Below, one piece after another: positions 34,356 to 63,005 of a stretch of DNA of 64,000 nucleotides (position 1 is its first letter; every line of letters starts with the position of its first letter). Source of the stretch: Spirochaetia bacterium (lineage in GTDB: Bacteria; Spirochaetota; Spirochaetia; CAKZLE01); contig OY782041.1 of assembly GCA_963677595.1 (NCBI GenBank), forward strand, positions 192,001-256,000, in the 5' to 3' direction. The notes below the pieces were generated by a model. The model did no database searches and was not told where the DNA came from. It saw only the letters and a list, made by a program, of their open reading frames with translations. The translations under genes and the position numbers were made by a program.

Positions 34356-34799
34356 TCACAGCTCCTTTCCGGTGACACGCTCGGCAGCCAGCTTCCAGAC
34401 CCGTACAGCCTCGACAGCTTCAGGAGTGAACTCCCAGGCCTCATCTGAGTAGTGGGCCATGATGCGGGACAACGCTTCCACCTTCCCCGTATAGCCTGTC
34501 ACCTCTGAGACCTGCCCGTACCCGATGACACTCCTTCCGGACATACCCCAGCCGCAGGGAGCTTTATCATGCGGCTGCAGCCTTACATCCTGCTCCATCT
34601 CGAAGCAGACGGTCCCCCCGCCCTCGAGGTAGGCGATCTTCCTGCCCTCACGTGCCGTGTGGAAATAGATATGCGACCCGTCGTACCCGTAGTTCAGCGG
34701 GATGATATACGGGAGGGATCCTGCAGAAACAGCGAGCCGCATGACCTCTGCCCCCCTGATCACCTCATCGATCCGTGCACGATCCCTGATCTCTTTATT
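34356..34799 (-). pseudogene. 3' part of pyridoxamine 5'-phosphate oxidase / NimA-like flavin-binding gene interrupted by IS110 after codon 4
   Basis: Reads NKEIRD...PYIIPLNYGY...IYFHTAREGRK...VTGK. Joining to ATG AGA AGA GCA at 36392-36381 restores a 151-aa ORF beginning MRRANKEI. Confidence 0.85.
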
Positions 34800-34809
34800 T
34801 GTCTGTAGA

Positions 34810-34815
34810 TGTCAA
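34810..34815 (-). promoter_or_regulatory. IS right-end -35 box (TTGACA); pairs with left-end -10 TAGTAT (36373-36368) at 17-nt spacing only in the circle
   Basis: Junction sequence TTGACA-tctacagaCAgagaaag-TAGTAT. Confidence 0.85.
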
Positions 34816-34930
34816 GGGGTATAAACAAGAAAGTTTTGGCAATTCAAATAGACACAATTCTCCGAGACCTTAAAAATAAGGACTTGCGTGGGGAGGTGGT
34901 TAGTGATAGGCTAAAACCGTTAGATTGGCT

Positions 34931-36100
34931 TTAGCTGGTTATTGAGCTCTTATCGGAATTAATCTGCCAGGATCGGGTTCCGACGAGAGCTTCAAGTTTA
35001 TAGTATTGCAGTTTCTTCAACAGATACTGTTCCCCGTCAGGCATCCGGTAGATGTCACCGTTCTTCAGCAGAGCGAATCCGATAGAGAGCATCTTATTAG
35101 CAATGGCAACTGATGCTTTCTGACCAAGCTTCCGTCGGCTCTCAAGACGCTGCCAGTACCGAGTAAGAGAACAATCTCTCCTAAAGCTCTTGATCCCCCA
35201 GGCTCCCTGCATGATGTGCCTCCTGATCGGCATACACCCGTGACGAGAGACCCCGAGCTGCTTATCGACCGTCCCAGATTGATCCTTCTTCGGGATGAGA
35301 CCGATATAGTTCCTCAGTTGGTTAGCAGAAGAGAATCGGTCTCCATTACCGAGGAAGGCAATGAGCGTTACAGCCGTGATGTCTCCGATGCCAGGGATCG
35401 AGAGCCAGGAAAGAGCTTCTCGTGGATGAGCGAGAATGATCTCCTTGAGCTTCTCATGAATACGTTCCATCTGCGACTCCAATGATTCAAGCTCTTCGAG
35501 CAGGAGCCCTGCACTGAATAGAGCTATCTCCTCGGCGAGTAGGGTCTCCACCCAGGCCCGTCGCTTGCGAGGATCCTTCAGATCCGATTTCTTCAGGTCA
35601 GGGAACCCCATTCCCGTGAATACCGCATGAAGCTTGTTGATGACCTTCGTACGATACTGAGCATAGGCGATGTGAAGTTTGACTACTGAGCGCTCAGCAG
35701 ATTCCTGTTCAGTCGGGATGGGAACCAGTACCCAGTTCTCAGGATGGGCATCCCGTGCATACTTAGCCAATTTTGCAGCATCTTGCCGATCTGTCTTGCA
35801 GATCGACTCGAAGATGATATGCAGTTTCATGGGGTTGAGTACATACACGTCTGCTTCGGTGTGCTTCAGCAGATACCGTGCGAGGTTGAAGGAAGATGTC
35901 CCTCCCTCCATAAAGATCGCATCTCCTGCTTTGAACCGTTCAGCGAGTCGCTGACGTCCTTGAGCATTCATCTTCTCGTTGAAGAAGTGATTCTTCATGA
36001 ACCCTTCTTCTGCTAGCAGCATACACCCAACCAGAGTCTTCTTGGAAAGATCCAAGCCGATGATCCTGGTTGCCGTCAATCGTAAAGGTCTGTCTATCAT
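34931..36100 (-). CDS. IS110 family transposase/recombinase (RuvC-like DEDD plus Tnp domain)
   Basis: IGLDLSK, FMEG, KTDRQDA (DEDD); SIPGIG; YIGLIP..DQSG catalytic serine; GAGGAGG RBS. Confidence 0.95.
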   Translation of the reverse strand: MIDRPLRLTATRIIGLDLSKKTLVGCMLLAEEGFMKNHFFNEKMNAQGRQRLAERFKAGDAIFMEGGTSSFNLARYLLKHTEADVYVLNPMKLHIIFESICKTDRQDAAKLAKYARDAHPENWVLVPIPTEQESAERSVVKLHIAYAQYRTKVINKLHAVFTGMGFPDLKKSDLKDPRKRRAWVETLLAEEIALFSAGLLLEELESLESQMERIHEKLKEIILAHPREALSWLSIPGIGDITAVTLIAFLGNGDRFSSANQLRNYIGLIPKKDQSGTVDKQLGVSRHGCMPIRRHIMQGAWGIKSFRRDCSLTRYWQRLESRRKLGQKASVAIANKMLSIGFALLKNGDIYRMPDGEQYLLKKLQYYKLEALVGTRSWQINSDKSSITS

Positions 36101-36124
36101 GGCAGCCTCCTCAAAATAAAATTA

Positions 36125-36368
36125 ACGGATAGTTGGGAAGCTTTATGACAGGAAGTGCGTAGATGTCCTTCATTTTTATTATTGAGATCATTCCCGGGGA
36201 GAATTCCCCGGGAAGTCTCCAAGTAGTCTTCGATGACCGGTCAGTGTATCTTTCTCATTGAGGTATGTCTGGCAGTCCAGCATCCATCACAATAGATCAT
36301 TACACGATCACCGGTTCCCATTCTCCGTCAAGAATAGGATAGCATCTATGACTTCTCAACTACAGTCA
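36125..36368 (-). ncRNA. IS110 bridge/seek-type guide RNA with target-binding and donor-binding loops (ends approximate)
   Basis: Guides GAUCUAUU (36298-36291) and AUGAGAA (36258-36252) match target flanks. ACUACUU (36227-36221) and GACAUCUAC (36167-36159) match the circle junction. All lie in internal loops between stems. Confidence 0.8.
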
Positions 36369-36380
36369 TACTACTTTCTC

Positions 36381-39750: not shown

Positions 39751-40128
39751 ATGAGACGAATCGGAATCTTTGCGATCATCATAGGTACGGGTATCATCCT
39801 GCTCTGGGGGTTCCTGCTTGCCGCAGGTGGAGTTCCCGAGATCAGGACCGCCCCGGTGAGTATCACCTTCCACCTGATAGCGGAACTCCTGATGGGGACA
39901 GCATCCCTGACCAGCGGGATCCTGATCCTGCAGGGCATACCAGCAGGCACCTATACCTATCTCATCACCAGCGGGATGATCATCTACTCGGTCATAAACT
40001 CTTCAGGCTATTACGGGGATACCGGGGAGTGGGTGATGGTGGCTATGTTCATGGTAATCCTCATCTCCACCCTGGTCACTGATACCATGCTGCTGAATCG
40101 CATCTTTCAGGCTGGGAAGGACCGATAA
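39751..40128 (+). CDS. Small four-TM membrane protein
   Basis: Hydrophobic helices; FHLIAE; YSVINSSGYY; TATAAT 7 nt before ATG. Confidence 0.7.
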   Translation: MRRIGIFAIIIGTGIILLWGFLLAAGGVPEIRTAPVSITFHLIAELLMGTASLTSGILILQGIPAGTYTYLITSGMIIYSVINSSGYYGDTGEWVMVAMFMVILISTLVTDTMLLNRIFQAGKDR

Positions 40129-59791: not shown

Positions 59792-60001
59792 ATGTCTCGA
59801 GAACACCATAGGCAGATTTTCATGTCTGAAGAGGATCTCTATAACTATTATACCGACGTAGATGACGACGACGATGATGACGACTTCGACCCGGAAGACG
59901 ACGATGAGTTCGATGAGGACTTCGACGAACTGGAAGAAGACGAGGATGATCTCTTTGAGGACTATGATTTTGACGATGACTATCTCTATGGTGATGATTG
60001 A
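59792..60001 (+). CDS. Hyper-acidic low-complexity microprotein (69 aa)
   Basis: GGAGG RBS, upstream promoter, downstream hairpin; mixed GAC/GAT/GAA/GAG codons. Confidence 0.7.
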   Translation: MSREHHRQIFMSEEDLYNYYTDVDDDDDDDDFDPEDDDEFDEDFDELEEDEDDLFEDYDFDDDYLYGDD

Positions 60002-60009
60002 ACCGCTTA

Positions 60010-60036
60010 GGTCATCAGGGCTGCCCCTGATGACCC
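60010..60036. terminator. Hairpin between convergent genes
   Basis: GGTCATCAGGG-CTGC-CCCTGATGACC. Confidence 0.65.
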
Positions 60037-60047
60037 CGTCTGAGCCG

Positions 60048-60635
60048 TTACCATAGTAGGGATGTTTTCAGGATCGGGAGGATCGGCAGGTCCGTATCCT
60101 CCGTATAGTCCCCGATAAAGGCATATCCGTGCAGTCCCACCGAGAGGACTGCCCCACCAACAGGTCCACTGAACCCGAAACCACCGCCGCCGAAGATGAT
60201 CCCGCCGGAGAGAGATTCAGCCAAAGTGATCCCTGTCCCATTACCGAAGATCCCAAGATTAGTGAAGTCAGCCTCGACGTAGAATGAACTCGGGGAAGAG
60301 GAGAGGTGGTATCGTGCCCCTGCCTCAGCGACATAGACGAAGATGAACTCATTCCCTTCGATCATCTGCGGGAGGATCATTGCCGTGAAATAGTTCAGCG
60401 GCGCGAAGGTGACCTGGGCATCGAGCCTGTCCGTCAGCCCATAGGCAGCCGTTATGCCGAACGGCGCGATCTTGAGGACCTCCACGTTCGGGATCGGCAG
60501 GGCATACATCCCCAGGCCGATCCGCAGGTCCCCTTCCCTTCCCGCATCCATACCATACGTATCCGCACTGTAGAGCGGCAGGACTGCAGCACTCAGCAGG
60601 AACACCGCAGCTATGATCATCAGTCTGTTTCTCAT
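60048..60635 (-). CDS. Predicted outer-membrane beta-barrel protein
   Basis: Signal peptide, amphipathic Gly/aromatic strands (EAGARYH), C-terminal Trp. Confidence 0.65.
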   Translation of the reverse strand: MRNRLMIIAAVFLLSAAVLPLYSADTYGMDAGREGDLRIGLGMYALPIPNVEVLKIAPFGITAAYGLTDRLDAQVTFAPLNYFTAMILPQMIEGNEFIFVYVAEAGARYHLSSSPSSFYVEADFTNLGIFGNGTGITLAESLSGGIIFGGGGFGFSGPVGGAVLSVGLHGYAFIGDYTEDTDLPILPILKTSLLW

Positions 60636-60802
60636 TACTCATTTCCTCCATTACTACAAGGAGAACCTGCCTCCTCATACGAAGTTACATCTCACGTTGA
60701 AACAAACGTTCAAGGGCCCTGCTGCATGCTGGGATCTGGCTTCTAGCCCAGGATCTTCAGGACTTCAGACTCTGGGAATTCTGTCACACGTGCACTCAGG
60801 TA

Positions 60803-61705
60803 TCAATCAGCCAGGGTATCCTGGAGTTCCCTGATGGCATCTTCACTCAATCCTGTGATATCAGCGATATCAGGGGGAGACATCCCCTTAGCCAACATTC
60901 GCTTTGCAATCGCTTTCTTTTCTTCCTCTACGATCGCCTTCTCCCGAGCCAGGGCATCCTGTACTGCCAGCCTTCGCTGTTCCTTGTGGTACCTGCTCAC
61001 ATCCTCATCGCTTATGTGTATCATCTGATCTACCGCCTTGTCGAAGATCGCGTTCCGTTGACAGAGTTCCTCGAGCTGTGTCTCATCCTCCAGCCTGAAG
61101 AATGTCGTCCACTGATCCCTCAGGCTCTCGGGATCATCATGGTCCATACGCTTAAGCTCCACGAAGACCATCTCCATGAGATCCGTGAACTCTTCTTTCG
61201 TCTCCCGGTCATGGAAGGTCATGTGCCGTATATAGGACCTGGTCGTATCCGGCTTCTCTTCGTAGTTCTCTCCGTCCTTATCTTCTTCCGTCTCTATCAG
61301 ATTATAGCACAGAAAATTGAGAGTTATAGCCTTGCCGAAATCGGCAGGCCGCTTTCGGCAGTCTCCCTTCTTGATCTGGCTTGAGTAGAGGCGGGCAAGG
61401 TAATGCAGGCTGCGGGGCATGATGTCAAACTCATTACGGACCTGGACCTCGACGTTGATATGCTCGTTGTTCGAGGTGAGGACCCGCAGGTCGAGGCGGA
61501 AGAGCTTGTCATCGGGGTATTCCCGCTCTATTTCCGTGGTCATGATCGTGATGTCCTCCGGGCTCTCCGCGGAGATGTCGAGGTAGGCGGTGAGCAGGGA
61601 GAGCAGCAGGTCCTTGTTCTCCTCCTTGGTGAAGATCGCCTTGAAGACGATGTCACTGGTAAGCGGCAGCAAGGTGCTGTTCCCGTACTTGATCTCTTTA
61701 AACAT
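60803..61705 (-). CDS. Rpn family recombination-promoting nuclease (PD-(D/E)XK)
   Basis: SDIVFKAIF, RLDLRV, INVEVQ, C-terminal IAKRMLAKGM..IADITGLS. Confidence 0.9.
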   Translation of the reverse strand: MFKEIKYGNSTLLPLTSDIVFKAIFTKEENKDLLLSLLTAYLDISAESPEDITIMTTEIEREYPDDKLFRLDLRVLTSNNEHINVEVQVRNEFDIMPRSLHYLARLYSSQIKKGDCRKRPADFGKAITLNFLCYNLIETEEDKDGENYEEKPDTTRSYIRHMTFHDRETKEEFTDLMEMVFVELKRMDHDDPESLRDQWTTFFRLEDETQLEELCQRNAIFDKAVDQMIHISDEDVSRYHKEQRRLAVQDALAREKAIVEEEKKAIAKRMLAKGMSPPDIADITGLSEDAIRELQDTLAD

Positions 61706-61790
61706 GCGGGTTCCTCCTGTGTTCGTATAGCTACTACAAACAGGATTTAGTTAGATTTGATTTAAAAAATGCTGCGATCGATGAAAAAAA

Positions 61791-61963
61791 TATGACTGTA
61801 GTTGAGAAGTCACAGATGCTATCCTATTCTTGACGGAGAATGGGAACCGGTGATCGGATAATACTCCTTTGTGACGGATGCTGAACTTTCAGACATACCT
61901 CAATCAAAAAGATACACTGCCCGATCATTGTAGACTACTTGGAGACTTCCCGGGGAATTCTCC
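61791..61963 (+). ncRNA. Orphan copy of the IS110 bridge-type RNA with altered target guides and truncated donor loop
   Basis: Ungapped 156/173-nt identity to the reverse complement of 36198-36370; no transposase follows. Confidence 0.8.
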
Positions 61964-62035
61964 TGACAGTCTTACTGCGGCTGGACGATTCCGGCATCCG
62001 ACCAGTTGAACAAACCTACCGTTCCGGTATAATCC

Positions 62036-62938
62036 ATGGGTATGGAACAGATTCTCGGACAGGCCCTGGCACTGGTCATAGCAGTATGCTGGGCACAGAA
62101 CTCCCTCGTCTTCTCATATACCGGCGGCAGGATCGGAGCGAACACCACAGCCCATGTCAGGCTGTGGATTGCGCTGCCGCTCATCCTTGCCGTCCACAGG
62201 ATCTGGCTTGGCTCCTGGTTACCGCAGGGATACGGATTGGAGACCTGGCTCCCCCTCGGGCTCTCCGGGGTACTTGGCTTCTTCATAGCGGACATCCTGA
62301 TCTTCCAGTCCTACGTCCTCCTCGGCCCGAGGGAGACCCTCGTGATCCTGACGACATCGCCCATCATCATCGCTCTCCTCTCTGCGGCATTCCTGCAGGA
62401 GGCATTATCCCGGATGCAGGTCTTCGGGATCCTGACGACGGTGGCAGGGGTCATGTGGGTAGTACATACGGAGACGGAGAGACGCAGGAAGGAGCAGCGG
62501 CACAGCCTCAAGGGCATCCTGGCGGCACTCGGCGGGTCAGTCACCCAGGCAGCGGCCATGGTCCTCTCACGGGCAGGGATGGATGAAGGGATCCATCCGC
62601 TCTCCGCTACGGTGATCAGGATAAGCTTCGGGTTCATCGGGCTTGTGGTGATGGTGATCCTGCAGGGAAGGTTCATCGATGACTTCAGGAAAGCCGGATC
62701 TGTGAGGATCCTCCTCCTGATCACGGCAGCCGTGGCTGCAGGTCCCATCATAGGCATCAGCCTCACCCTCTATGCCATAACCCTCGCCCCGGTGGGAGTC
62801 GTGACCGCGATCAGCCAGATCAGCCCGATCCTCCTGCTTCCCGTCGAACGGTACGCCTTCGGGAAGAGGATCGGCCTCAGTACCCTTGCGGGCACGGCCG
62901 TCGCGATCTCAGGCACGATTATCCTGATCGCAGCCTGA
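62036..62938 (+). CDS. DMT/EamA family transporter
   Basis: 10 TM segments in two EamA repeats. Confidence 0.9.
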   Translation: MGMEQILGQALALVIAVCWAQNSLVFSYTGGRIGANTTAHVRLWIALPLILAVHRIWLGSWLPQGYGLETWLPLGLSGVLGFFIADILIFQSYVLLGPRETLVILTTSPIIIALLSAAFLQEALSRMQVFGILTTVAGVMWVVHTETERRRKEQRHSLKGILAALGGSVTQAAAMVLSRAGMDEGIHPLSATVIRISFGFIGLVVMVILQGRFIDDFRKAGSVRILLLITAAVAAGPIIGISLTLYAITLAPVGVVTAISQISPILLLPVERYAFGKRIGLSTLAGTAVAISGTIILIAA

Positions 62939-63005
62939 ACGAGAAGACCTATATTTCGGCTTCATTACGCTTGCGTACGGCTCTCAGTGGCTGTATCATA
63001 AAGAT

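Follow-up and report, generated by a model that had tools for sequence, protein, structure and literature searches.

The window, i.e., the whole stretch of 64,000 nucleotides analyzed here, contains a full IS110-family element and, between an rpn-family gene and an EamA transporter gene, an orphan piece resembling the left end of that element. The features, with their positions in the window, are as follows.

34794..36376, minus strand: full-length resident IS110-family element (1583 nt from core to core); the genome has five such near-identical copies, this one included
34931..36100, minus strand: intact 389-amino-acid (aa) IS110 recombinase (PF01548 and PF02371; NF033542 with 201 bits, cut-off 140)
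60803..61705, minus strand: rpn-family PD-(D/E)XK gene, whose upstream repeat is the insertion site
61781..61790, plus strand: left junction with the half-site ATGAAA, the AA core, and then AA in place of the GTAG of the relatives
61788..61793, plus strand: degenerate -10 position, AAATAT for TAGTAT
61791..61961, plus strand: inserted IS110 left-end fragment with the 5' hairpin of the bridge RNA, its target-binding loop, its first donor guide, and one half of the donor hairpin
61793..61809, plus strand: left subterminal inverted repeat, retained in the orphan
61822..61845, plus strand: bridge-RNA 5' hairpin, identical to that of the resident element
61848..61930, plus strand: target-binding-loop hairpin; the outer helix forms, and the inner TGTA/TACA helix (61857-61860 with 61913-61916) is broken
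61863..61870, plus strand: 5' target guide ACTCCTTT, predicted to pair with the core and right flank AA-AGGAGT
61903..61910, plus strand: 3' target guide ATCAAAAA, identical to the predicted left flank and core
61934..61940, plus strand: first donor guide ACTACTT, complementary to the core and the start of the left end
61942..61961, plus strand: 5' arm and loop of the donor hairpin, with the break point just behind the loop of a 10-bp palindrome
61962..61994, plus strand: right host flank, starting with CCTGAC and joined directly to the left flank in the empty paralogues at C1:2986277 and C1:1176996
62036..62938, plus strand: EamA transporter gene, with a promoter-like site (62006-62033) outside the insertion

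The resident recombinase has the domains of an IS110 enzyme, a DEDD RuvC domain and a Transposase_20 domain with the conserved SG motif. Residues D17, E65, D104, D107, and S275 align to ISCro4, and we take these to be the catalytic residues. The named close homologues are spirochaetal, and all five full copies in the genome have intact recombinase genes. Across the joined ends of the element, TTGACA-17-TAGTAT can be read, a predicted circle-junction promoter. The element has properties of the IS1111 group: subterminal repeats were found in six of six elements with 11 to 14 matches in 17 positions (counted without a shuffle control), and the top-strand guide comes first, an order taken from the junctions. 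In contrast to that group, the RNA is encoded upstream of the transposase and not in a noncoding region 3' of it, and the protein has 389 aa and not 330 to 350 aa; exceptions to the IS1111 layout rule are noted in PMC11187229. The combination of an IS110-like RNA upstream of the transposase with an IS1111-type guide order was seen in this lineage (34794-36376, L047, L060, L061, and L063), and in L061 both subterminal repeats change together. A more distant full IS110 element in the same genome (L084, G000:C1:2615275-2616691; 46% protein identity) encodes a bridge RNA with the same architecture (82 bits).

The original prediction had described positions 61791-61963 as a gapless 173-nt alignment to the resident left end with 17 differences, six of them in the target guides, and alignment and blastn reproduced this: against the reverse complement of 36198-36370, the alignment is ungapped with exactly 17 differences in 173 nt, and the E value of about 1e-62 is far beyond chance. 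The six guide differences are at 61863, 61864, 61867, and 61868 in the 5' guide and at 61905 and 61907 in the 3' guide. From the nearest full copy, the orphan is separated by fifteen differences. The CC at 61962-61963 is compatible with both the element and the host flank. As had also been described, the first donor guide is unchanged, the homology ends within the donor hairpin, which is indeed palindromic, and the second donor guide, the transposase, and the right end are all absent. The -10 position is degraded as claimed, and the TTGACA -35 is supplied by the right end of the element, which is missing at the orphan. The description of the piece as an IS110 bridge-RNA left end without a transposase and with target guides unlike those of the resident element was correct.

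Which site would such guides address? All five full copies have the AA core at both their left and right junctions. The six bases to the left of the core recur in the 3' guide, and the six to its right are the complement of the 5' guide, giving a contiguous site of the form 6+AA+6; overlap of both guides in the core is the published rule (PMC11208160). The agreement of guides and flanks was examined by a scripted permutation test with equal slip on six distinct elements, with the G001 element left out and checked separately. The 5' guide covaried with the right flank, and only 2 of 720 permutations reached the observed score; for the A-rich 3' guide and the left flank, the number was 90 of 720, which is not significant with six elements. 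The site of the full copy at 145k (G000:C1:145124-146706) agrees with the guides of that copy in 5/6 and 4/6 positions (wobbles counted half) but with the resident guides in only 2/6 and 2/6. Since the junctions of the five copies and of the relatives give 6+AA+6, the predicted target of the orphan is ATCAAA-AA-AGGAGT. The right half of this target is similar to a Shine-Dalgarno sequence, an observation of the original prediction that we can uphold. The spacing of nine nucleotides between the two target halves that had been proposed could not be maintained: ATGAGAA is found 9 nt upstream in just one of the four copies with resident guides, the one in the window, and every match of the N9 pattern in the genome has two or more mismatches. 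The N9 spacer stems from a chance ATGAGAA upstream of the copy in the window.

The guides of this family are not fixed. Between the 145k copy (L076/L051) and the copy at 2594k, 9 of 12 guide positions are different but no more than 2 of 161 positions in the scaffold. A third 3' guide is present in a full sibling from run X4. On this comparison of sequences, guides change far faster than the scaffold, either via selection or via some rewriting route. Several elements of the lineage are located at, or have guides for, A-runs beside terminator-like hairpins or the 3' end of a tRNA (L047, L067, G000:C1:1664440, and window position 40125), which suggests safe-harbour targeting.

The orphan is an insertion right behind AA in the repeat that precedes rpn genes. 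At two paralogous sites, which are empty, the sequence is GATCGACGAA(A/G)AA directly followed by CCTGAC, with the insertion point between the two parts and no loss of flank. The left half of the site, which precedes the insertion point as ATGAAA-AA, matches the orphan guide in 5/6 and the resident guide in 5.5/6 positions and is the best left half among the three paralogous sites. The right half matches the orphan guide in 0.5/6 positions, i.e., the flank at 61962..61994 does not match the orphan 5' guide, and the resident guide in 1.5/6. The rpn family itself is expanded (window 60803-61790; G000:C1 1076k, 1177k, 1991k, and 2986k): at least five close copies have 75 to 120 nt of upstream sequence in common, and these copies are mosaic with about 88 to 91% identity.

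Contigs from other samples also touch this site. A contig of X1 joins 61785 to 61962, and a contig of X3 joins 61789 to 61962; at the 16 diagnostic positions covered, the X1 contigs have resident-type alleles alone. The empty joint of X1 abuts a contig leading into EamA, and a paralogue-type branch leaves at 61994, so the joint may be that of a paralogue. In contigs of runs X3 and X4, the EamA upstream region of another strain is preceded, at window position 61963, by unrelated DNA ending in AATAAA; the spot by the right junction of the orphan may be a recurrent junction. Upstream of the EamA orthologue in G001, a genome of the same genus, neither rpn nor the orphan was found. Could the orphan be an assembly artefact of collapsed repeats? 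The locus lies between two repeat families, the contamination score of G000 is 6.3%, and the left junction is not bridged by an independent contig. However, a 151-nt contig of X2, possibly from the source sample, is identical to 61840-61990 and spans the guides and the right junction, and fifteen differences from the nearest copy cannot arise by collapsing copies. An artefact is therefore scarcely credible.

To judge the RNA, we used a bridge-RNA structure drawn by hand for nine relatives from one of those sequences. In this structure, 94.5% of the cells are paired and 12 pairs are doubly changed; none of 500 shuffles reached this value, and slid controls gave 37 to 50%. The claim that the stem changes of the orphan keep pairing was correct for 61884/61889, 61854/61924, and 61849/61929 but not for T61857G and G61858A. 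These two changes (TG to GA) break two of the four pairs of the inner helix TGTA/TACA, which is invariant in nine of nine aligned relatives and is kept, often via other letters, in distant relatives. When the resident RNA is folded, the pairs of this helix have predicted probabilities of 0.94 to 0.99, compared to 0.0 for the orphan; the outer target helix of the orphan is still predicted to form (0.69 to 1.0). Two mismatches in the inner helix were found only in the orphan and in the transposase-less locus L110, among the 37 of 41 hits with both arms aligned. The change from CUGG/CCAG to CUGA/UCAG is largely inherited, for the copies at 2594k and 2379k already have CUGG/UCAG, and the A at 61884 is present in 9 of 13 relatives. 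C61929T and A61931T fall on invariant columns as well. The target loop had been called intact, a description that does not fit a broken conserved closing helix and two further changed invariant positions. At the left end, the terminal GTAG has become AA, and 61787, 61788, and 61790 differ from columns that are invariant in 13 of 13 relatives.

Are these changes more than decay? Among the nonguide changes of the orphan, 4 of 9 fall on columns that are invariant in other lineages, which is about the unselected expectation (62 invariant of about 161 columns; L067, which aligns poorly, was excluded from this count). Some intact relatives break invariant columns as well (L061, 6 of 68). The scaffold differences are concentrated in the target hairpin (8 of 73 positions, versus 1 of 88 outside; p=0.008), and with the six changes unique to the orphan alone, the p value is 0.07. 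Evenly spread decay would not produce such clustering, for which a recombinant parent or gene conversion of the flanks from resident copies may be responsible. As another source of the clustered changes, correction of the hairpin by template switching was considered and gave, by eye, only a partial fit.

The orphan is not a complete bridge RNA. It has no 3' arm of the donor hairpin, no second donor guide, and no long-range closing helix, so that a donor loop with both guides is missing, and its target loop has both guides but not both conserved closing helices. The covariance-model score is 139 bits, compared to 279 to 281 bits for the full copies, which helped to build the model. The promoter scan gave no consensus promoter upstream of the orphan RNA; a weak promoter-like site was found inside the orphan (61802-61830, 9/12), and shuffles give 0.7 sites per region.

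The predicted target ATCAAA-AA-AGGAGT has a single 14/14 match in the genome, at C1:391409, and this site is unoccupied. It lies at a ribosome-binding site, six bases ahead of the coding sequence for a ChvE-family sugar-binding protein, which is the first gene of an ABC operon. In none of the five other genomes searched was a perfect target present. The chance of a perfect match is about 2 to 10%: of 729 sequences varied at the same six positions, 16 are present in the genome, the Markov expectation is 0.03 to 0.05 at orders 3 to 7, and 5 of 64 variants occur in the same A-rich context. One of eight foreign sibling guides has a perfect site in this genome, and other A-rich sibling guides have perfect empty sites in two of five and one of five genomes. 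The chvE leader itself had no match in G001, G002, and G004 and coding matches alone in G003 and G005. Antisense pairing of the orphan 5' guide region to the chvE message was rejected as an explanation; it ranked 188 of 17,021 seeded windows, which is nothing special. The chvE match may be chance, the preferred site of the parent element, or a live target.

The last of these possibilities would make the orphan a working target-loop-only guide RNA that is produced by read-through or from a weak internal promoter, loads onto the resident recombinase, and takes it to the chvE site, where it could block transcription or redirect insertion. In its favor are the single perfect chvE match, absent from all five other genomes searched, the five intact recombinase genes, and the internal promoter-like site, which would start an RNA just before the loop. 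Moreover, one-junction transfer is possible with RNAs that have the target loop alone, and with IS621, full transposition was seen as a rare event (bioRxiv 10.1101/2025.10.25.684509; PMC11187229), and read-through yields bridge RNA without the junction promoter (PMC13626964). On the other hand, the chance of a perfect match is not small, the chvE site is empty, the conserved inner helix is broken, and the orphan was found neither at the EamA orthologue of G001 nor in the X1 contigs, although contigs cannot prove absence. The loop-only RNA of IS621 is >10,000-fold worse than the full bridge RNA at completing transposition (bioRxiv 10.1101/2025.10.25.684509). No orphan-guided insertion was found: each of the five full copies occupies a site to which its own guides are suited at least as well as those of the orphan, and the genome contains no orphan-type junction. 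We therefore consider a working guide RNA quite improbable. The same holds for the trans-acting role that the original prediction had assigned to the orphan, for which neither a promoter, nor conservation, nor orphan-guided insertion was found and which we regard as very doubtful, and it is just as improbable that the stranded target loop serves as a separate guide by which the resident recombinase is directed to the chvE operon and its ribosome-binding site.

If the orphan is not a guide, it could still be a mobile unit, i.e., a nonautonomous mini-element moved by the resident recombinase like ssr9 of ISPpu9. The precise insertion at AA, the empty paralogues, and the retained left subterminal repeat would fit, and there is a precedent for the mobilization of solo RNA modules by an IS110 enzyme (PMC12288879). 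But such a unit needs both ends and should be multicopy. The right end is missing, which largely refutes this reading, and the terminal GTAG is lost. We had looked for further solo copies in the genome by blastn and with the covariance model, and found the five full copies, the orphan, one distant full element, and nothing more; copies with the ends of the orphan were not present in 61, 401, and 258 genomes searched by DNA. A mini-element is thus extremely unlikely. Rfam gave no match for the orphan (E values up to 1, positions 60000-63000), and the viral contigs searched contained no such locus.

Remnants that consist of little but the left end are common in the lineage. The covariance model had hits in 30 of 151 genomes of a related family. 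We examined 32 loci, the best hit per genome plus two, of which 26 have at least 1.2 kb of downstream DNA; at 7 of these 26, the transposase is <=110 aa long. In G001, a left end with 37 codons (L002:1497-1883) has immediately behind it a sequence that agrees in 9/9 positions with the 5' guide of this same element, which reads as a deletion ending at the right junction. Inspection of the right junctions of L064, L070, L048, L091, L097, and L102 by eye gave no clear guide match, and therefore, the pattern of a deletion up to the right junction is limited to G001 and the orphan. Other remnants have different shapes. In G392, two pieces of one bridge-RNA type (L059 and L054/L106) are on different contigs, both without a transposase, and L059 breaks off where the 5' guide begins and gives way to other sequence resembling another IS. 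L110 in G401 is a transposase-less target loop that ends in a short donor hairpin, has broken pairs, and is much like the orphan.

Taken together, the orphan is very probably a nonfunctional remnant, whether it arose by insertion and later deletion or arrived as a fragment. That it might be a decayed remnant of a sibling IS had been offered originally as the alternative, and this is the best fit to the data: the right end, the transposase, the closing helix, and the -35 are gone. The perfect unoccupied 14/14 target, the clustered changes, and the outer helix that still forms count against a remnant.

With regard to its origin, we favor, as the probable course of events, that the orphan is the left end of a differently programmed sibling IS110 element that inserted in full, then suffered a deletion, and is likely dead. 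A full sibling with the guides of the orphan would have inserted here by half-match recombination at the AA core, a kind of insertion described for IS621 (bioRxiv 10.64898/2026.08.31.748434). About 1.4 kb, from the palindrome of the donor hairpin to the right junction, would then have been lost across the CC microhomology, and the stranded piece would have gathered a few unselected changes, i.e., those in the terminal GTAG, in the inner helix, and at two invariant bases. In this view, the orphan would have received its different guides from the parent, as a case of ordinary natural reprogramming and not of adaptation of the orphan itself. Two observations weigh against insertion and deletion: further changes (GTAG to AA) are required at the left junction, and no AA core is left at the right one.

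Alternatively, the site never held a full element, and the nonfunctional remnant arrived as a fragment, by an aborted one-ended transfer or as a reintegrated partial circle. This would explain why no flank was lost and why there is neither a trace of a right end nor a second core, and the break at a strong palindrome is in line with it. Partial IS110 circles that reuse one terminus and reintegrate at new sites have been described (bioRxiv 10.64898/2026.08.14.744561), as has one-junction transfer (bioRxiv 10.1101/2025.10.25.684509). However, a circle that reintegrates at the core is expected to be flanked by AA on the left and on the right, and the right side has no AA. Furthermore, the G001 remnant retains the core and a right flank matched by its guide, as expected for a full insertion followed by a deletion. 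Arrival as a fragment is therefore possible but rather unlikely.

How does the remnant compare to known systems? Bridge RNAs of the IS621 type are noncoding RNAs upstream of a DEDD recombinase with separate target and donor loops (Durrant et al. 2024, PMC11208160). The system described here has these traits in common with them, along with two guides overlapping in a 2-nt core, a predicted circle-junction promoter, and natural variation of the guides (PMC11208160); it differs in its AA core, in its 6-nt arms, and in a guide order that is reversed relative to the element, with the 5' guide pairing with the right flank. Unlike an IS621-type element, the orphan has just a target loop and half of a donor part and no recombinase. 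For seekRNAs, it is reported that an RNA of 58 to 100 nt with target guides alone can support some transfer (Siddiquee et al. 2024, PMC11187229; Sun et al. 2025, bioRxiv 10.1101/2025.10.25.684509), and the parent of the orphan has the IS1111-type guide order and imperfect subterminal repeats found there (PMC11187229). But a seekRNA is processed from the full element and has the same target, whereas the orphan is a separate locus with another predicted target and a broken closing helix. Closer relatives are the partial circles and reintegrated fragments of Hu et al. (2026, bioRxiv 10.64898/2026.08.14.744561), which also have one terminus, a precise insertion, and an empty site, and the half-match insertions of Xie et al. 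(2026, bioRxiv 10.64898/2026.08.31.748434), in which one half-site alone is matched. Those fragments are >99% identical to their parent; the orphan differs in its guides, and the genome no longer contains the parent. Like ssr9 of ISPpu9 (PMC12288879), the orphan is a solo small-RNA module from an IS110 locus apart from the transposase, but ssr9 is a multicopy module with boundary boxes and circles of its own, and the orphan has no right end and is present in one copy. Truncated IS110 left ends are thus an already known kind, of which the orphan is a fresh example with reprogrammed guides. A natural split guide aimed at a host gene was not found in the literature searched, most entries of which were judged at the level of their listing.

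The remnant itself is ordinary, but it records how an IS110 element can insert at a half-matched site and then be stripped of all sequence before its right junction. With it, one genome has three guide settings on one scaffold, which bears on how the guides of bridge RNAs get rewritten in nature. Expression of the orphan loop and its binding by the recombinase would, if they took place, make it a natural case of a split guide directed against a host gene, and steering of the resident recombinase to the chvE operon, if true, would mark the beginning of a natural path by which a bridge RNA turns into an RNA-guided regulator of a host gene or would give the resident element a second address.
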